Origin: an uncultured Chloroflexia bacterium | GTDB lineage: Bacteria; Chloroflexota; Limnocylindria; Limnocylindrales; CSP1-4 | Length of the DNA: 64,000 bases | NCBI GenBank assembly: GCA_963738475.1 | Contig: CAVTWU010000029.1 | Location: 65,924 to 129,923 of the forward strand | Direction: 5' to 3' | Part shown: in pieces, positions 40,228-48,856 of the stretch | Layout of the letters: every line of letters starts with the position of its first letter | Numbering within the stretch: the stretch's first letter is position 1 | Made by a program: the position numbers and the translations under genes | Notes under the pieces: model-generated | Told to the model about the DNA's origin: nothing | What the model saw: only the letters and a program-made list of their open reading frames with translations | Database searches by the model: none

Positions 40228-42393
40228 TCACGAGGCGGAGCCGCCGCCTCCGCCCGCCGCCCGACGCGACTCCAGGTCCACGATCTCGCTCTGCGGGTAG
40301 GCGATCCGCGTGTGGTACATGCCCAGCAGCTGGCCGACGAACGCCTCGCGGATCAGCTCGAGGTCGCGCAGCGTCAGGTCGCACTCGTCGAACTGGTCGT
40401 CGTTGACGCGCTCTTCCATGATCCGGCTGACCATCGCGCGGATGGCGGGCTCGTCGCGCGAGGCGAGCGAGCGGACGGACGCCTCGACGCCATCGGCGAG
40501 CATGATCAGGGCGGCTTCCCGTGTCTGGGGCTTCGGGCCGGCGTGGCGGAACTTGCGCTCATCCACGGCCGCCGCGGCCTTGGCGCCCTCGGCCGTGCCG
40601 GCGCCGCCATACGGCGCCGCCGCCAGGTCCTTCGCCCGCGCGTAGAAGTAGCCCATGATCGCCGTCCCGTGGTGCTGCGGGATGTAGGCGATGAGGGCCT
40701 TGGGCAGCTTGGCCTTGTAGGCGAAGTCGATGCCGTCGGCGACGTGCTGCTTGACGACCTGGGCGCTGACCTCGGGGTCGAGCTCATCGTGGATGTTCTC
40801 GCCGCCGGCCTGGTTCTCGATGAACGCGAGCGGGTTCGCGAGCTTGCCGACGTCGTGGTAGTAGGCCGCGACACGGGTCACCAGCGGGTCGCCGCCGATC
40901 GCCTCGGCGGCGCGCTCGGCGAGGTTGCCCGACCATCAGCGAGTGGTGATAGGTCCCGGGCGTCTCGACCAGGAGCCGGCGCAGCAGCGGCTGCGACGGG
41001 TTCGCCAGCTCCAGGAGCTGGAAGACCGTGAGGATGCCGAAGACGGAACCGAGGACGGCGAACAGCCCGACCGCCGCCACGCCCGACCCGGCCGCGCTGG
41101 CCGCCGAGGCGAACCACAGTTCCAGCAGGCCCTGGATGTCGCGCGTCACCCAGCAGCGAGAAGACGGTGACGACCATCGCGTTGCACGATGAACACGGCC
41201 ACCGCGGCCTGGACGAAGACCTGCAGTCGGTCGCCCTTGCGGACGGCGATGATGCCGGCGACGCCGCCCAGGAACGTGTAGGTCGCGAACTCGAGCGAGC
41301 CGCCGTTCACCGCGCCACCGATGATCGCGATGATCGCGATGACGATCGTGGCGAGGGACGCGTCCAGCAGGATCGCCAGGAGCATGCCGATGGCGGCGGT
41401 CGGCAGGAAGAACTGGAGGATCGACCGGCCGGCCGTGACCTTCAGGGCGAGCGTCGCCCCGACGACCAGCACGCCGATCAGGAACAGGACGTTGTCGCGG
41501 TGCCAGAGGCCCGGTCGGAACCGCCAGATCCAGGCGAGCAGCATGCCGACCACCAGGAGCGACAACATGAACCAGCCGACGAAGACGTTCGGGCTGGGAC
41601 CTGCCACGCCCAGGCCGAGCGCGTCGATCTTCTCGATGTCCGCGGCCGTCAGCAGCGTCCCGTTCCGGACGATGACCTCGCGCTGGGCGATCTCGACCAC
41701 GATCGGCGCGACGGCGGCCTCGGCTCGATCCTCTGCCTGATCCGTGAGGAGCTGGCTGAACGACGAGTTCGGGACGACCAGGTCCCGGACCAGTTCCGCG
41801 GCGAGCATCCGCTGAGCGGCATCGAGGCCACCGGCCATCAGCCCGGTCAGCCGCGTCTTGGTGGCGGCGACTTCGGTGTCCAGCAGCTCCGTGCGCAGGA
41901 TCCCGTCGAGGACGCGAGCCGCCTCGGCTCGAACGGCCGCCCAGCCGTCGCCGTCGAGGCCCGCCAGCGTCGTGCTGGACGCCTCCGTGAGCGACGGCAT
42001 GACGGTCGCCAGGAGCACCGCACGCTCCTCCGGCGTCATGTCGGCGGCGTAGAGCGTGTCGATCGGCGAGACCTTGCGCTCGAACGCGAGGGCCTGTTCG
42101 GCCGCGATCGCGATCGCCTTCTCGCTCGTGAAGTCGTACTGCGGATCGACGCCCGCTCGAGCCTCGGCGCGGGCGGCGGCGGTCTGGACGTCGCTCTCGA
42201 ACTCGATCGCGGTCGGCGCGACGATGTCGGTCGGGGCGATATCGCCGACGGCCAGGGTCGTCGTCTCCTTGGGCAGGAAGTCGGCGCCGAGGATCGCGGT
42301 CATGGTCAGGACCAGGATCACGGACGCGATGGCGAGCCGCGTCGCATCGCTTCGCGTGAAGCGGGAGATCGAGGCCGCCCGGCTGGTCAGCAT
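40228..42393 (-). CDS. 7TM-HD phosphohydrolase (PgpH/YqfF-like cyclic-di-AMP phosphodiesterase), frameshifted
   Basis: Extracellular domain plus TM helices, PGTYHHSLMV, YYHDVGK, FIENQ, IPQHHGT, GPKPQTRE, LADGVEA. Confidence 0.9.
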
Positions 42394-42397
42394 GGCG

Positions 42398-42889
42398 TCA
42401 GTGGGTCCCACCGTCGTGGGCGGCGAGGTCCGCCCGGGCGAGGGCCTGGACGACGAGCTCGCTCACGTGCTTGCCGTCCGCCCGACCCTTGGTCTTCGGC
42501 GACAGCCAGCCCATGACCTTGCCCATGTCGCGGGCGGACGTCGCGCCGGTCGCGGCGATCCCCTCGTCCACGAGCGCGACGACCTCGGCCTCGGTCAGCG
42601 CCTGGGGCAGGTAGCCGCTCAGGATCTCGATCTCGGCGGCTTCCTTGTCGGCGAGGTCCTGGCGGCCGGCGCCCTCGAAGGCGACCACCGACTCGCGCCG
42701 GGTCTTCACCTCACGGGTCAGCACGCCCAGCATCTCGTCGTCGGTCAGGGCACGGCCCTGCTTCTTCTCGACGTTGTAGGCGGCACTCGACGCCATGCGC
42801 AGGACGTCACGACGCAACGCATCACCACTCCGCATGGCGGCGGCGATGTCGGTCTGGATCTGCTCTTGAAGGGACACCGGTTCTGGCAC
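42398..42889 (-). CDS. GatB/YqeY domain protein
   Basis: IAAAMRSGD..RRDVLRM, EVKTRRES, GRQDLADKE, YLPQALTEAE, DMGKVM, ADGK. Confidence 0.92.
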   Translation of the reverse strand: MPEPVSLQEQIQTDIAAAMRSGDALRRDVLRMASSAAYNVEKKQGRALTDDEMLGVLTREVKTRRESVVAFEGAGRQDLADKEAAEIEILSGYLPQALTEAEVVALVDEGIAATGATSARDMGKVMGWLSPKTKGRADGKHVSELVVQALARADLAAHDGGTH

Positions 42890-43359: not shown

Positions 43360-43698
43360 TCAGCCGGGAAGCTGCTGGCCGAGCACGAAGATCCAGTACG
43401 CGTCCAGCACGACGACGACCGCCCAGAACCCGATGATCAGCGTCGGGCGCCGGAGGAAGCACTTGCTCCACGACACGCCGAGCGTGATCGAGCGGGCATA
43501 GAGCGCGATCGCGACGATCGCGACGATCAGCACGAACCAGGCTGGTCCGACCGCCCAGGCGATCAGCCCGATGGTGCCCATCCGGCAGAACGTGAACGCG
43601 AGCCGCTCGTACTTCTCGGGGCGGCTCAGGGGCGGCCGGACGTACGACCCGGGGCCGACGACCCCCGGGGTCAGCGACTCGCCATGCAGACTCGTCAT
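43360..43698 (-). CDS. Small membrane protein (about 3 TM), last gene of the radical SAM operon
   Basis: ATG overlaps the radical SAM stop; FTFCRMGTIGLIAW and WSKCFLRRP segments. Confidence 0.75.
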   Translation of the reverse strand: MTSLHGESLTPGVVGPGSYVRPPLSRPEKYERLAFTFCRMGTIGLIAWAVGPAWFVLIVAIVAIALYARSITLGVSWSKCFLRRPTLIIGFWAVVVVLDAYWIFVLGQQLPG

Positions 43699-45278
43699 CG
43701 ATGGTCCCCCGATGCCATCGCCGGGCTGGACGCCGGGACGGCGTCCAGAGCCACCAACCGACCCGCGGGCACCATCCCGGCCGATGTGCGCCTGCGGAGT
43801 TCTCCGAAGACCTGTCGCGCACAGAACGGGATCCGGACGGGGTTCCGCTCCCCGTCGGTGGAGCCCACGTGCACGCAGCACTGCTGCAGCCGTTCGACGT
43901 TGAGCGTCCACGGATCCATGAACGTCTTGATCGAGACGCGCTTGACCCGCAGGGCGATCTCGTCGAGCGGAGCGCTGCCCCGGTTCGTCAACCACCGGCC
44001 CAGGCCCTTGATGAACCCCGAGACGCCCAGGTCGCAGACCTCGCAGATGTCCAGGAGGTAGTCGATGACCTCTCGACGACTGACCATGGCTGTCTCCGAC
44101 AGAAGGCCCGTGAGTGACTCCCACAGGGCATCGTCCGGGGCGAGGCGATTGCCGAAGACCGCCATCCGCTCCTTGAGCCGATCCCGCCCGATGAGCTGGA
44201 CGATGGACCGATGCGACCCGTCGTCACCGCGGATGAAGTAGGTCAGCGACGAGCAATCCGGGTGACTGCATGGCAAGGCGATGAAGTCGTCCGGACCGAC
44301 TCGACCCTCCGTCTGCGCGCCGAGGCGACGGATGGTCCCGGTCGTCGTCGCCCGGGCCATCGGATCGACCGGGTTGGCCCGCCCGGCGGTGAACATCGGC
44401 TGGATGGCGACCCCGGCGATGTAATCGGTCGCGAAGGCATGATCGACGACGGCCCCCACCTCGTCGTCGTTGACCCCCGTGGCAACGGCCATCGCCAAGG
44501 TCGTGAAGATCCGCTCCCCGGTGAGGCGCCTGATCGCCTCCGCCTTCATCTCACGCAGATCCTCACCGCGGTGGAACAGGTGGGTCTCGAGGCGGAAGCC
44601 GTCGAACTGGAGGTACACCTCGACACGGTCCCGCAACCGCGCCAGGTCCGCCAGGAATCGGTCGTCGCGGACGATCCGGATCCCATTCGTGTTGAGCACG
44701 ACCCGGGTGACCTTGCGCTCCACGGCGGCCTCCAGGATCTGGACGATCTCCGGATGCACGGTCGGCTCACCGCCGGACAGCATCAGCGCGTCGACGTGGC
44801 CACCCTCGCGCTCGATCGCCGTGTCGAGCGATCGCAGGATGTGCGGCAGTCGGGCGTGACGGTTGTTCCCCGGTCCGCTGTCGGCGAAGCAGGTGGGGCA
44901 ATGCAGGTTGCAGTTCTGGGTGACGTCGAGCAGCAGGATGCAGCTGTGCTGGGTCTGCAGGTCGCCCAGGCCGTCGAGGTACCCCATCGGGATGGGCCTG
45001 ACATTGTCGGGAACGTCCGGCGTGATCTCGCGAGTGGGGATCCGCCAGTCCTGCAGACCCTGCCAGAGGGCGTAGTCCTCCTCGTACAGGCTCACCACCT
45101 CACCGTGGCCGCGCTGGCAGTGGCGGCGCAGGTAGACGGCGCCATCCATGGCCACCAGGTTCCCCTGGAGGACGTCGACCTCGTAGTCGATCTCGCGATC
45201 CGGGTCGTCGCTGAAGCACCGTCCGCAGATCGTCAGGACCATCCGGAGAGGCAGGTACGGCCGGAGGGCGAGCGTCAT
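43695..45278 (-). CDS. Radical SAM enzyme of the Tes/GDGT-MAS (MJ0619)-like family
   Basis: Intact 527 aa. N-terminal CGRC...HCQRGHG; CNLHCPTC; SGGEPTVHP; NTNG; VYLQFDG; PCSHPDC; C-terminal DPWTLNVERLQQCCVH...RIPFC. Confidence 0.8.
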   Translation of the reverse strand: MTLALRPYLPLRMVLTICGRCFSDDPDREIDYEVDVLQGNLVAMDGAVYLRRHCQRGHGEVVSLYEEDYALWQGLQDWRIPTREITPDVPDNVRPIPMGYLDGLGDLQTQHSCILLLDVTQNCNLHCPTCFADSGPGNNRHARLPHILRSLDTAIEREGGHVDALMLSGGEPTVHPEIVQILEAAVERKVTRVVLNTNGIRIVRDDRFLADLARLRDRVEVYLQFDGFRLETHLFHRGEDLREMKAEAIRRLTGERIFTTLAMAVATGVNDDEVGAVVDHAFATDYIAGVAIQPMFTAGRANPVDPMARATTTGTIRRLGAQTEGRVGPDDFIALPCSHPDCSSLTYFIRGDDGSHRSIVQLIGRDRLKERMAVFGNRLAPDDALWESLTGLLSETAMVSRREVIDYLLDICEVCDLGVSGFIKGLGRWLTNRGSAPLDEIALRVKRVSIKTFMDPWTLNVERLQQCCVHVGSTDGERNPVRIPFCARQVFGELRRRTSAGMVPAGRLVALDAVPASSPAMASGDHR

Positions 45279-45793
45279 GTCGACGCCGTGAATGGCAGGC
45301 AGAGACCGGCGACCCCGACGAGCAGGATGATCGGGATGGCCATGAGGATCACCACGGCCCGTGCCGACCGTTCCGGGTCAGGACGACCGCGGCGGATGAT
45401 CAGCACCGAGATGATCACGGTCAGCCCGAGCGCGAACGTGAGCACCCCAAGCAGGACAGGGCCCATCCCGTACTGGAACGCCCGCCCGAGGTAGATGACC
45501 GCGAACACGAGCCAGGTGATGCCATACGCCAGCAGGACGATGTTGCGGGCACGGGTCCGCACCGGGCCGAACCGCTGTCGCTCGGCCTCGTGCTCACCCG
45601 AGATGCGGATCGCCTCGTCGACCTCACCCGCGTCGTAGCCTGCCTGGAGCGCAGCCGAGCGCAGCGCTTCGATCGTGAACCGATCGCGCTCCTTGTCAAA
45701 GTGGCTGACCAACGTCAGCTGACGCCACGCCGCATTCGCATGGGGTGGGGCCTGGCGGGCGGCGGGAGCGGGATCCCTCGGCGATCCATCCAT
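45275..45793 (-). CDS. Membrane protein, paralog A (N-terminal helical domain, 3 TM, C-terminal GLC)
   Basis: GGAGGTGA RBS; FTIEALRSAALQAGYDAGEV; ends LLVGVAGLCLPFTAST; stop overlaps the radical SAM ATG. Confidence 0.75.
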   Translation of the reverse strand: MDGSPRDPAPAARQAPPHANAAWRQLTLVSHFDKERDRFTIEALRSAALQAGYDAGEVDEAIRISGEHEAERQRFGPVRTRARNIVLLAYGITWLVFAVIYLGRAFQYGMGPVLLGVLTFALGLTVIISVLIIRRGRPDPERSARAVVILMAIPIILLVGVAGLCLPFTAST

Positions 45794-45825
45794 GTATCAC
45801 CTCCTGACGTGCGCGCGACTGGCCG

Positions 45826-46284
45826 TCATCCGCGGCTGGAGCTGAGGCCAGCGACGCACAGGCCACTGAGCCCGACGAAGATGACCACGGAGATCGCGAA
45901 GGCGATCGCCACGGACGCGCACCCGTTATCGCGGGTCGGCGCCGAAGCGAGTCGATACAGGGAGTACAGGCCACCCGCGACCATCGCGACGGCATAGAGG
46001 GGCAGGATGAGAGGGGCCCCAGACCCCCACGAGGCGGCGGCGAGGGCCAGCAGGATGGCTGGGGCGTATGCGGTGAAGACGACGAACATCAGGAGCCCGG
46101 ACGCCACCCGGGTCCCGGTGTCCGCGGTCGGCGGACGTTGGCCCGCGTCGTAGGCCGACCAGGCGGCAGCGATCTCCGCCTGATCATGGCCGCTGGCTGC
46201 CAGCGAAGCGGTGATCGCCTCGCGCGTGAAGTGGGCATCGTGGTCCGCGATGTACCGGAGGGCCGTCTCGTCGGGCGTGCTCAT
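45826..46284 (-). CDS. Membrane protein, paralog B (N-terminal helical domain, 3 TM, C-terminal GLC)
   Basis: ATG overlaps the Lgt-like stop; FTREAITASLAASGHDQAEI; ends IFVGLSGLCVAGLSSSRG. Confidence 0.75.
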   Translation of the reverse strand: MSTPDETALRYIADHDAHFTREAITASLAASGHDQAEIAAAWSAYDAGQRPPTADTGTRVASGLLMFVVFTAYAPAILLALAAASWGSGAPLILPLYAVAMVAGGLYSLYRLASAPTRDNGCASVAIAFAISVVIFVGLSGLCVAGLSSSRG

Positions 46285-47102
46285 GGCTGGACCTCGATGA
46301 AGCCGTGAGGCGGCGGGGCGGCGGGGATCCGATAGGCGTCCCGCTGGATCTGCCGCAGGAAGTGGATGACGAGCAGGCCGACCATCGGGATGAGGACCCA
46401 CTGCGGTCCGGTCAGGCCCAGCGCCTGCGGCTCATTGCCGCGCACGAACTCGACCAGGAACCGGAACGTCCCGGCGGCCAGGAGGTACAGCTTCAACCCA
46501 TCGCCGGGCACGGGCACGCGCTCGCGATAGCGGATGATCAGGGCGATCGCCACGAGGTTGAACCCGATCTCATACAGCATCGACGGATGCATCGCCACGT
46601 CACATCCGGGGCACCGAGCGAATGCGGCGGCGACCTCCGGGCCGACGCTGATCCCCCATGGCAGCGTCGTCGGTGTCCCGAGCGGTAGCTCCGAGAAGAA
46701 GCAGCCGATCCGCCCGATGACCGTCGCGACAGGGATCGCCAGGAGATAGCAGTCGCCTGTCGAGCGGGTATAGCCGAAGGCCCGCTTCGTCAGGGCGATC
46801 GCGATGTAGCCACCGGCCAACGCGCCGAGGATGCTCTTGCCGCTGCGCTCGATGACTTCGCTGAATGGGCGGTCGGCGAGCGCGCCATAGACCTCGAGGT
46901 GCTCCCAGGACGTGATGACGCGAGCCCCGATCACGCCCCCGAGGACGGCGGCGAGTGAGATCCAGAGGATCGGCCCGTCGAGCCAGCGCCGTCTGCGTAA
47001 CTCGCGGTAGTAGATCCCGAGGCCGACCGACAGCGCGATGACCGTGAACGCGTCGTGCGTCATCACGGTCAGAGGACCCCACTCGAACAGGATCGGGTGC
47101 AT
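46281..47102 (-). CDS. Prolipoprotein diacylglyceryl transferase (Lgt)-family paralog
   Basis: MHPILF N-terminus, GGVIGAR, GRIGCF, TTLPWG, HPSMLYE, RFLVEFVR; the HGG signature is replaced by ILGA. Confidence 0.85.
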   Translation of the reverse strand: MHPILFEWGPLTVMTHDAFTVIALSVGLGIYYRELRRRRWLDGPILWISLAAVLGGVIGARVITSWEHLEVYGALADRPFSEVIERSGKSILGALAGGYIAIALTKRAFGYTRSTGDCYLLAIPVATVIGRIGCFFSELPLGTPTTLPWGISVGPEVAAAFARCPGCDVAMHPSMLYEIGFNLVAIALIIRYRERVPVPGDGLKLYLLAAGTFRFLVEFVRGNEPQALGLTGPQWVLIPMVGLLVIHFLRQIQRDAYRIPAAPPPHGFIEVQP

Positions 47103-47215
47103 GGACGCCACCCAACTTGCCGGGACATCGGAGGATCCAGCGCCCCCTCATGAAGGACGCGTCGTTCGTCCGGATGGTACGCCCCGGCGCAACAGCTGAG
47201 GCTTATCCTGTATCC

Positions 47216-48856
47216 GTGTCCGAGACCCTTCTGGGCCTGCTCGACGAAGCCGTGTCGCGGTACGGCGACAAGCCCGCGCTGAGCCTGCGCGCGGACGATG
47301 GCTCGACCAGCGACTGGAGCTTCCGCGAGCTCGAGCGACGAGGGCGCCTCGCCGCCTGGCGCCTGCGGGCCCTCGGCCTGGAACCCGGCGACCGCGTCCT
47401 GACCTGGTCCCCGTCCATGCCGGAACTGGCGGCGGCCTACTTCGGGGCCATGCGTGCGCGCCTGATCTACGTGCCGCTGGACCTGCGCATGTCGACCGAG
47501 GCCGTCGAGGCGATCGTCCGCACGAGCGAGTCGCGCCACCTGATCCTGGGCACCGGACGCGACGCGCCGGACCCGCGCGAAGCTCGACTCGAACACTTCC
47601 CCACGACGACGCTCGAGGCCCTGTGCGCCGAACCCGCCGACGACGACCCGCTCTTCCCGCCCGACTGGGAGGCGCACCAGGCCGCCTGGGAGTCGCCGAC
47701 ACCCGACGAGATCTTCCAGCTCGTCTTCACGTCCGGCACGACCGGCACGCCGAAGGGCGTGATGCTCGCCCACGACAACCTGCTGGCCTCGATCGAGTCC
47801 TTCCACGCGGTCATGCCGCACCTGGAGCATCGGATCGTGTCGCTGCTGCCCCTGTCGCACCTGCTCGAGCAGGCGGTCGGGCTGTTCTACGCGCTGAGCG
47901 TCGGGGCCGACGTCCTGTACGTCCGCAGCCGCAACCCACGCGTCATCTTCGATGCCCTGCGCGACCACGAGGTCACCTCGATGGTCGTGGTGCCGCAGGT
48001 CCTGGACCTGTTCTGGAGCGCCATCACGCGCGAGGTCGAGAAGCGCGGGAAGACCGCGTCGTTCGATCGCCTTCGGGGGATCGCCCGTCATCTCCCGATG
48101 GCGATCCGGCGGATGCTGTTCGGCAGCGTCCACAAGCAGATCGGCGGGCACCTGCGCCTGTTCGTGTCGTCCGGGGCGTTCCTGCCGCCGGCGCTGCAGC
48201 AGGGCTGGGAGGACCTCGGCGTCATCGTCATGCAGGGCTACGGCGCCACGGAGACCGGGACCGGCAGCTGCACGACGCTGGACGATCACGGCCTCGGGAC
48301 GGTGGGGCGGCCACCGGCCGGGATCCAGATGCGCCTCGCCGAGGATGGCGAAGTCCAGTTCAAGGGCCGGCCGGTGTTCAAGGGCTACTGGCGGAACCCC
48401 GAAGCGACGGCCGCCGCCTTCACCGAGGACGGCTGGTACCACACCGGCGACATCGGCCACCTCGACGACGAGGGCCGCCTGATCCTGTCGGGCCGGATGA
48501 AGGACATCATCGTCCTGCCGAACGGCTTCAACGTCTATCCCGAGGATCTCGAGAACGCCCTCCGCATCGCCGGCATCCGCGACTCGGTCGTGCTCGAGAC
48601 GAAGCCCGGTCGCATCGAGGCCATCGTGCTCGCCGGCACGACGCTCGGCGCCACGCCCGACCCGGCCGAGATCCGCGCGCGACTCGATGCCGCCGTGAAG
48701 GCCGCCAACGCGACGCTGGGACCGAACCAGCGGATCGCCGGCTGGCGCCTGTGGCCCGAGGACGACTTCCCGCGCACCCACACGCTCAAGGTGAAGCGCC
48801 CGCTCGTGCGCGCCTGGGCCGACGTCGAGGCGGCGCTGCCCGTCCAGGCCTCGTAG
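47216..48856 (+). CDS. Long-chain acyl-CoA ligase (AMP-binding)
   Basis: FTSGTTGTPKGV, LPLSHLLE, QGYGATE, GWYHTGDIG, GRMKDII, NVYPEDLE; GTG start six nt after TATCCT. Confidence 0.9.
   Translation: MSETLLGLLDEAVSRYGDKPALSLRADDGSTSDWSFRELERRGRLAAWRLRALGLEPGDRVLTWSPSMPELAAAYFGAMRARLIYVPLDLRMSTEAVEAIVRTSESRHLILGTGRDAPDPREARLEHFPTTTLEALCAEPADDDPLFPPDWEAHQAAWESPTPDEIFQLVFTSGTTGTPKGVMLAHDNLLASIESFHAVMPHLEHRIVSLLPLSHLLEQAVGLFYALSVGADVLYVRSRNPRVIFDALRDHEVTSMVVVPQVLDLFWSAITREVEKRGKTASFDRLRGIARHLPMAIRRMLFGSVHKQIGGHLRLFVSSGAFLPPALQQGWEDLGVIVMQGYGATETGTGSCTTLDDHGLGTVGRPPAGIQMRLAEDGEVQFKGRPVFKGYWRNPEATAAAFTEDGWYHTGDIGHLDDEGRLILSGRMKDIIVLPNGFNVYPEDLENALRIAGIRDSVVLETKPGRIEAIVLAGTTLGATPDPAEIRARLDAAVKAANATLGPNQRIAGWRLWPEDDFPRTHTLKVKRPLVRAWADVEAALPVQAS

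Follow-up and report, generated by a model that had tools for sequence, protein, structure and literature searches.

An Lgt Paralog, a Tes-like Radical SAM Enzyme and a Fast-Evolving Gly-x-Cys Membrane Protein Family in a Coupled Gene Module of Chloroflexota

Gene Organisation of the Locus

The stretch of DNA analysed here (the window) comprises 64,000 nucleotides (nt) of contig CAVTWU010000029.1 (positions 65,924 to 129,923 of the forward strand) in the assembly GCA_963738475.1 of an uncultured Chloroflexia bacterium, placed by GTDB in CSP1-4 within the order Limnocylindrales of the class Limnocylindria. The source is a metagenome-assembled genome (MAG) that is 60% complete and has probable frameshifts. 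In a region with a G+C content of 67-71%, the window carries one tightly packed minus-strand unit of five open reading frames (ORFs), encoding a paralog of Lgt (Lgtp), two small membrane proteins with a Cys at the end of the last transmembrane (TM) helix (B and A, which together with their relatives make up family X), a radical SAM (S-adenosylmethionine) enzyme resembling Tes/GDGT-MAS, and another small membrane protein, Y.

Lgtp (46281..47111, minus strand; 276 amino acids, aa) is the product of the first gene of the operon and matches PF01790 with E=1.6e-30 (106.6 bits). B (45826..46287, minus strand; 153 aa) and A (45275..45793, minus strand; 172 aa) are both predicted to consist of a three-helix N-terminal domain followed by three TM helices, ending in ...VGLSGLC(144)VAGLSSSRG and ...VGVAGLC(165)LPFTAST, respectively; the Cys144 codon of B is located at 45858-45856 and the Cys165 codon of A at 45301-45299. 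The radical SAM enzyme (43695..45278, minus strand; 527 aa; PF04055, E=2.5e-19) carries an N-terminal Zn-ribbon-like CxxC...C...H pattern and a CxxxCxxC motif, while the last product, Y (43360..43698, minus strand; 112 aa), has two invariant Cys residues, C38 in KYExxAFTFC and C80 in KCxLRRP.

ATGA overlaps are present at the Lgtp/B, A/radical SAM and radical SAM/Y junctions, and the gap between B and A is 32 nt, with AGGAGG 7 nt upstream of A; every junction in the window is either an ATGA overlap or Shine-Dalgarno-spaced. X, Lgtp, the radical SAM enzyme and Y form a four-part, translationally coupled module. The first-pass annotation of this DNA, made from the sequence alone, had placed two tandem paralogous membrane proteins at 45275-46284, which is right except that the ATG of B lies 3 nt further, at 46287 on the minus strand. 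It had taken the Cys at the end of the last TM helix for a relocated C-terminal lipobox and a possible substrate site of the adjacent Lgt paralog. This interpretation is partly supported: the computational predictions made from it were borne out, but the radical SAM enzyme and the Cys-bearing Y had been overlooked as parts of the module.

Membership of Family X and Its Gly-x-Cys Motif

A and B are indeed tandem paralogs: BLASTP aligned them with E=5e-6 and 23% identity over 147 residues, and a single family hidden Markov model scores both (174.6 bits for A and 110.2 bits for B). The N-terminal strings quoted for them and the endings VGVAGLC and VGLSGLC had been read correctly. Library scans gave no Pfam or NCBIfam match for A or B. 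A word-indexed protein search with the pair returned only 9 and 2 relatives, all carrying the Cys; the gene context is shared by one homolog of B, which is 50% identical to it. When 1.84 billion cluster representatives were searched with a profile, 634 proteins passed E<=1e-3, of which 279 also reached E<=1e-10. With 634 representatives now lacking annotation, X deserves a Pfam or NCBIfam model of its own.

In a MAFFT alignment of 147 full-length members, many of them just 20-40% identical to A, the only invariant columns were G163 and C165 (A numbering), each conserved in 147/147, although collection with a profile containing the motif slightly inflates this apparent invariance. The next-best columns were P154 (132/147), followed by T40, A43, L44, G52 and A61. 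A further alignment, of 108 members and with a mean column identity of 24%, left the same two columns invariant. Among 84 near-full-length copies gathered independently, via the neighbouring radical SAM gene, 82 contain G-x-C; the two exceptions are a likely frameshift and an A-Y-C variant. The Cys, on whose conservation among homologs the earlier interpretation had been made to depend, is thus the most constant residue of the family together with the Gly at -2.

Position -1 is variable, with L in 87, A in 20, I in 15 and T in 12 of the 147 members, and I, T, L, S, V or A in the genome loci. Family-wide, the motif can be written as [AGS]-G-x-C, the -1 residue being L, A, I or T, and it differs, as had been recognised, from a canonical lipobox (V-A-G-L-C in A and L-S-G-L-C in B). 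The reading of A and B as a simple tandem-duplication curiosity was rejected, since lineages differ in copy number (1 to 4) and the motif stays fixed.

Predicted Fold, Topology and Tail Variants

The AlphaFold2 model of A (predicted local distance difference test, pLDDT, 82) contains a confident three-helix N-terminal domain, the last helix of which continues into TM1, followed by TM2 and TM3. These three long helices, together with the alternating pattern of Lys and Arg (K+R) along the chain, agree with the initial designation of A and B as membrane proteins. A Foldseek search of the PDB with the short form of X gave nothing significant (best E=0.88). Mean K+R counts across X fall from 3.8 ahead of TM1 to 0.4 in loop 1, rise to 3.1 in loop 2 and drop to 0.5 beyond the Cys, which predicts an N-in, C-out topology, with the N-terminal domain in the cytoplasm and the Cys at the extracytoplasmic end of TM3. 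The latter helix is uncharged, the run before the Cys having a median of 22 residues, and is predicted to reproduce the n-region, h-region and Cys layout of a lipoprotein signal peptide at an internal position. The topology prediction suggested in the first-pass annotation thus gives a last helix resembling a signal peptide, with the Cys at its outer end. As for the relocated C-terminal lipobox, the helix-end layout stood, but "C-terminal" is not a general description: tail lengths beyond the Cys are bimodal, 63 of the 82 copies having 3-41 residues and the other 19 having 135-164.

Long tails begin with a Pro-rich linker and continue into a beta-rich domain (pLDDT 83) with an invariant pair of Cys residues, a modelled structure that fits an extracytoplasmic location. 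A Foldseek search of the PDB with long-tail X gave only weak, non-significant matches to small beta-barrels, including surface lipoproteins (best E=0.019), and these were not used as evidence. At the other extreme, a distant cassette, in which Lgtp and the radical SAM enzyme are each 45% identical to those of the window, encodes an 86-aa protein with two TM helices and no N-terminal domain, ending in LFGTCISATQW. Retention of the motif in this version points to the helix tipped with G-x-C as the essential part of X.

The N-terminal module of X is also found as tandem repeats in unrelated proteins. Three copies precede a MoxR-type AAA+ ATPase in one of them (P0091), and six copies precede an LPG_synthase_TM-like domain in another (P0134). 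The module, which gives weak DUF494/UBA-like Pfam matches, seems to be a small domain for which no model has been built.

The Lgt Paralog

The PF01790 score of Lgtp compares with a Pfam gathering score of 24.9, while its scores against the best NCBIfam Lgt equivalogs are 64 bits (cut-off 334) and 53.7 bits (cut-off 118.9). Lying above the Pfam gathering score and below every NCBIfam equivalog cut-off, Lgtp is a member of the superfamily but not a housekeeping Lgt, and the early identification of the adjoining gene as an Lgt paralog holds. A canonical Lgt (183-218 bits) was present in all seven cassette genomes checked, that is, the genome of the window and six others, which makes Lgtp a spare copy. 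In the genome of the window, the canonical enzyme is encoded elsewhere than in the cassette and keeps W-Y-G and GNFFNQELYG.

Lgtp was aligned to E. coli Lgt (5AZB), and conservation was scored in 64 orthologs. T-H-D in TM1, GR-GC-F, ELPLG, a CPxC loop, HPS-LYE and FRF-EF-R are invariant in all of them. The residues R143, E151, E202, R239, E243 and R246 (E. coli numbering), which constitute the donor/phosphatidylglycerol network of 5AZB/5AZC (PMC4728403), are retained in Lgtp and are >=98% conserved in the orthologs; the segments at the donor-site positions read GRIG, SELPLG, HPSMLYE and FRFLVEFVR. Several other positions have changed: Y26 is replaced by an invariant His, N146 by an invariant Cys and Y235 by Ala, while S-I-L-G-A stands in place of HGGL, the proposed binding site of the lipobox peptide (PMC4728403), and the conserved CPxC loop has been gained. 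A donor site kept next to a rebuilt acceptor site is the pattern to be expected of a paralog with a new acceptor. The type of X motif co-varies with the Lgtp segment at the HGGL position, SGKS being associated with short tails and GP[RK]S with long tails; since this co-variation follows clade boundaries, it was not counted as evidence of contact.

Two further, near-identical Lgt-like genes without GRxGN occur in the same genome, at G000:C15:7806-8774 and at about 121023-121796 of contig G000:C10 (L027 and L028). Both have a SARP/BTAD-like regulator and an aldehyde dehydrogenase gene as neighbours, in a segment duplicated on the two contigs, and the C10 copy diverges at its 3' end. Having neither X nor radical SAM neighbours, these two genes were set aside.

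The Radical SAM Enzyme and Y

GDGT-MAS (7TOL) is a full-length match of the radical SAM enzyme (E=1.5e-33, residues 40-488). In comparisons with NCBIfam models it scored 217 bits against TrsS (cut-off 490) and 175 bits against Tes (cut-off 450); judged by these scores, it is a Tes-like enzyme and not a Tes equivalog. C123, C127 and C130, as well as six further Cys residues, are invariant. Models of the SPASM type gave only 28-46 bits, confined to the core radical SAM region, and no maturase cut-off was reached. Among the matches listed in a word-indexed search with this protein, there were only close single-domain relatives.

Y, for which library scans gave no Pfam or NCBIfam match, comes after the radical SAM enzyme in the gene order of almost every locus and is far more conserved than X. 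In two distant cassettes, L112 and L111, the radical SAM gene is likewise followed by one for a Y-like protein. The latter, from a Ca. Elarobacter MAG, is a trio of Lgt-like, radical SAM and Y genes without X, and its Lgt-like product also has GR-GC. Y may be an older core partner of the module.

Conservation, Distribution and Evolution of the Cassette

The order Lgtp, X (1-4 copies), radical SAM enzyme, Y was observed in each of the 9 loci that X itself led to and whose flanks are readable; three contigs reached via X proteins and five genomes reached via the X profile show it. Two short contigs with distant members of X preserve one flank only, either the Lgtp or the radical SAM gene. A scan of GTDB species genomes, anchored on the radical SAM enzyme, revealed at least 558 loci. 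The best 80 of these belong almost entirely to Chloroflexota (Ca. Limnocylindria/Limnocylindrales, Chloroflexia and Thermobaculum), with a few MAGs labelled otherwise, and nearly all of those with enough upstream DNA show the same gene order. Taken together, essentially all of the roughly 90 related loci inspected keep this order. The 62 loci with a G-x-C copy contain a single X gene in 45 cases, two in 14 and three in 3; four copies were found in one genome (G058).

In a sample of 301 Chloroflexota genomes, X was detected in 6, and a radical SAM enzyme of the cassette type (>1000 bits) in exactly those 6. Strict co-occurrence of X with this clade of Lgt, which the first-pass annotation had proposed as a check, was likewise found. 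In another 28 of the 301 genomes, X is absent and the sole Tes-like enzymes belong to a different clade (about 106-290 bits against the cassette profile). Proteins of this X-less clade (e.g., G257:C238 and G224:C7, with a second copy in G221:C6) lack the first 33 residues, and the clade is commoner in the phylum than the cassette type. Both genomes of the sample that belong to the genus of the window genome (G124 and G261) lack X and the cassette-type radical SAM enzyme, and the cassette is therefore accessory. In other Limnocylindrales, it was observed in conserved synteny between HIT/AMP-ligase and rpsU/YqeY genes. Its absence from the two genomes of the same genus, together with this synteny elsewhere, suggests recent loss or patchy inheritance.

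The components of the cassette evolve at different rates. Between the same pairs of loci, identity is 55-85% for Lgtp, 51-91% for the radical SAM enzyme and 44-86% for Y, while X shows only about 20-53%. Being fast-evolving and variable in copy number, X resembles a substrate rather than an enzyme.

Divergently from the operon, an AMP-binding acyl-activating enzyme of 579 aa is encoded at 47117..48856 on the plus strand (PF00501, E=4e-69), whose role as a possible accessory is uncertain. A divergent AMP-binding gene is kept upstream of Lgtp in 25 loci, the window clade having a plain AMP-binding enzyme. In 7 loci of another Limnocylindria clade (L057, L044, L059, L083, L088, L105 and L107), an AMP-binding gene is co-directional and directly upstream of Lgtp; the one scanned, L057:909-3284 on the plus strand, encodes a fusion of AMP-binding, PP-binding and PlsC-acyltransferase domains. 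The X copies of this 7-locus clade are mostly of the long-tail form. The linkage of the AMP-binding gene may simply reflect shared synteny (HIT, rpsU, YqeY).

Two genes of the window genome appear to be interrupted. A 7TM-HD (YqfF-like) gene at 40784-42411 of the window (minus strand) ends at 421 aa without the HD domain, compared with 717 aa for a homolog in locus L003; since the next ORF (40784-41149) appears to hold the continuation, a frameshift is probable. The sole match to LspA (PF01252) in this genome (G000:C28:674009-674420) consists of two neighbouring fragments that lie in different open frames, indicating either a frameshifted gene or an assembly error.

Proposed Function and Alternative Explanations

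Flanked by an Lgt paralog and a relative of Tes/GDGT-MAS, X is probably a dedicated target of a protein-lipid modification. More specifically, A and B could be dedicated acceptors of Lgtp, with the Cys being S-lipidated and the attached lipid remodelled by the radical SAM enzyme, a tentative reading to which we give somewhat less than an even chance. It builds on gene order and coupling, the invariance of G-x-C, the predicted topology, the co-occurrence of the genes and the residue pattern of Lgtp; from these we infer the transfer itself, the identity of the lipid, and when and on what the radical SAM enzyme acts. According to this scheme, X would be inserted with its three-helix domain in the cytoplasm, and TM3, following the Arg-rich loop and carrying G-x-C at the outer face, would present the Cys as a lipoprotein signal peptide does. 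Lgt acts at the outer face of the membrane (PMC4728403), where the Cys of X is predicted. Lgtp, with the phospholipid-donor site of Lgt and a rebuilt acceptor site, would transfer a glycerolipid moiety, by analogy diacylglyceryl from phosphatidylglycerol, to the thiol of X, forming a thioether. The Tes-like enzyme, at the cytoplasmic face, would act on lipid tail ends as GDGT-MAS does, remodelling acyl chains of the attached lipid or of its donor, and Y would serve as its membrane partner.

Several points weigh against this scheme. Y26, H103 and N146, which are essential in E. coli Lgt, are all replaced in Lgtp, and the paralog may therefore catalyse a different reaction or none at all. Large residues (L, I, V, T) predominate at -1, and the Gly at -2 departs from a canonical lipobox, so that the ordinary rules of Lgt and LspA do not apply. 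Co-localisation is a functional link but is silent on which component acts on which, and because the module has four parts, including a radical SAM enzyme and Y, the Cys of X could serve the radical SAM enzyme or be a carrier thiol. The existence of the X-less trio means that X is not indispensable to the other three genes, and Y, with its two invariant Cys residues, could be the real protein partner. Finally, the bias of the motif-containing profile slightly favours the apparent invariance on which the scheme draws.

The most serious competitor, which we nevertheless consider unlikely, is that Lgtp, the radical SAM enzyme and Y form a complex making a modified free lipid, such as a tail-coupled or macrocyclic glycerolipid, and that X is a non-substrate subunit or lipid carrier whose Cys would act as a transient covalent carrier, in catalysis or in holding the complex together without being permanently lipidated. 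The full-length homology of the radical SAM enzyme to an enzyme of lipid-tail C-C coupling would fit such a role, as would the proposed function of bacterial Tes homologs in making membrane-spanning lipids (PMC8941075) and the dispensability of X in the Elarobacter trio. The AMP-binding genes upstream of Lgtp in the 7 loci, with an acyl-activating/ACP/acyltransferase fusion in L057, point to lipid metabolism as well, and the invariant Cys of Lgtp at the N146 position, together with its CPxC loop, could exchange with the thiol of X. On the other hand, subunits of an enzyme complex seldom show three to four times the evolutionary rate of their partners, or range from 1 to 4 copies, and variants with an extracytoplasmic domain of about 140 residues beyond the Cys look like displayed proteins rather than carriers.

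The same rapid evolution and multiplicity of small proteins beside a radical SAM gene recall the precursors of ribosomally synthesised and post-translationally modified peptides (RiPPs). X or Y might accordingly be a ribosomal substrate of the radical SAM enzyme, with direct modification of the Cys, for instance as a thioether joined to a carbon of a lipid tail or to a different residue, and with Lgtp supplying or positioning the lipid. The mechanism of GDGT-MAS reportedly includes a carbon-sulfur intermediate on a cluster sulfide, which would lend itself to such chemistry, and the two invariant Cys residues of Y are flanked by positive charges and possibly lie on the cytoplasmic side. We regard this explanation as quite improbable: the alignment of the enzyme with a lipid enzyme spans its full length, it stays under every SPASM/peptide-maturase cut-off, no SPASM/twitch domain or RiPP recognition element was found in it, the Cys of X is predicted at the membrane face opposite to this cytoplasmic enzyme, and X is a polytopic protein of 150-290 residues rather than a leader-core peptide. 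Least probable of all is a purely structural Cys, engaged for instance in intermolecular disulfides that join X copies to one another or X to the CPxC loop of Lgtp, in an X acting as a regulator or scaffold without lipid chemistry. Tandem paralogs such as A and B could pair, an outer-face Cys could form disulfides, and the long-tail variants already use a disulfide-like Cys pair; yet X is single-copy in 45 of the 62 loci where a G-x-C copy is present, and neither the invariant Gly at -2 nor the absence of X away from the Lgt paralog and the radical SAM gene would be explained.

Returning to the lipidation of X by Lgtp, a bolder version can be proposed, namely an undescribed pathway in which Lgtp would thioether-link a glycerolipid to the outer-face Cys and the radical SAM enzyme would couple the tail ends to each other or to an inner-leaflet lipid, yielding a macrocyclic or membrane-spanning covalent protein anchor. 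We rate it as rather unlikely. If true, long-tail X would display a beta-barrel-like domain on the surface of monoderm Chloroflexota.

Comparison with Known Systems

Lgt is regarded as a single-purpose housekeeping enzyme for N-terminal lipoboxes, while bacterial Tes homologs have been orphans, of geochemical interest as a possible source of membrane-spanning lipids. Here, a specialised clade of the former and a Tes-like clade are hard-wired together with a fast-evolving Gly-x-Cys family, and both enzyme families gain a concrete candidate substrate. Should the Cys be lipidated, bacterial protein lipidation would extend to internal and C-terminal sites of polytopic proteins and be linked to radical lipid chemistry; should it not be, the cassette would still mark a new lipid pathway common in soil Chloroflexota. 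The cassette was not described in any of the literature that we searched on TrsS, Lgt paralogs, Lgt together with Tes, and the lipids of Limnocylindria, and the literature searched on bacterial Tes made no mention of an Lgt paralog or a dedicated Cys protein. The combination of Lgtp, X, a Tes-like radical SAM enzyme and Y is undescribed in the literature searched.

The prolipoprotein pathway (5AZB/5AZC, PF01790) offers the closest parallel to the pairing of X with Lgtp. Lgtp belongs to the same Pfam family and keeps the Arg/Glu network of the donor site, and the Cys of X likewise terminates an uncharged helix of about 22 residues that follows a positively charged segment, with small residues preceding the Cys. 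The predicted charge layout of X is signal-peptide-like (K+R 3.1 in loop 2 and 0.5 in the tail), but the lipobox sequence and an N-terminal Cys position (about the first 15-35 residues) are not found in it: prolipoproteins have the Cys within the first 35 residues, whereas in X it is at residue 144-165 of a three-TM protein, and G-x-C with a usually bulky -1 residue differs from [LVI][ASTVI][GAS]C (PROSITE PS51257). In addition, Lgtp is a spare paralog (Y26H, HGGL lost, N146C) hard-wired to its candidate substrate genes and a radical SAM enzyme, and nothing points to LspA cleavage of X.

The activity of Tes/GDGT-MAS is the tail-to-tail coupling of archaeal diether lipids. The cassette enzyme shares the CxxxCxxC motif and further conserved Cys clusters with Tes/GDGT-MAS of M. 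jannaschii (7TOL/7TOM, NF045702) and with the related radical SAM (seleno)protein TrsS (NF045646), but it is far below both equivalog cut-offs and its host is a bacterium with ester lipids. Tes is not reported to be coupled to an Lgt paralog and to Cys-bearing membrane proteins, as this enzyme is. The bacterial homologs of Tes, which have been proposed for the synthesis of brGDGTs (branched glycerol dialkyl glycerol tetraethers) or membrane-spanning lipids (Zeng et al. 2022, PMC8941075), are members of the same radical SAM superfamily and are likewise bacterial, but they are discussed as free-lipid enzymes.

Some features of X also recall the C-terminal sorting systems. Like the substrates of PGF-CTERM/archaeosortase A, PEP-CTERM/exosortase and LPXTG/sortase, it has a short motif by a C-terminal TM helix and a processing enzyme encoded nearby; Pfam scans revealed no gene for a sortase-type transpeptidase in the cassette. 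In contrast to those systems, the motif of X is positioned at the outer end of the helix rather than before it, and its neighbour is Lgt-like.

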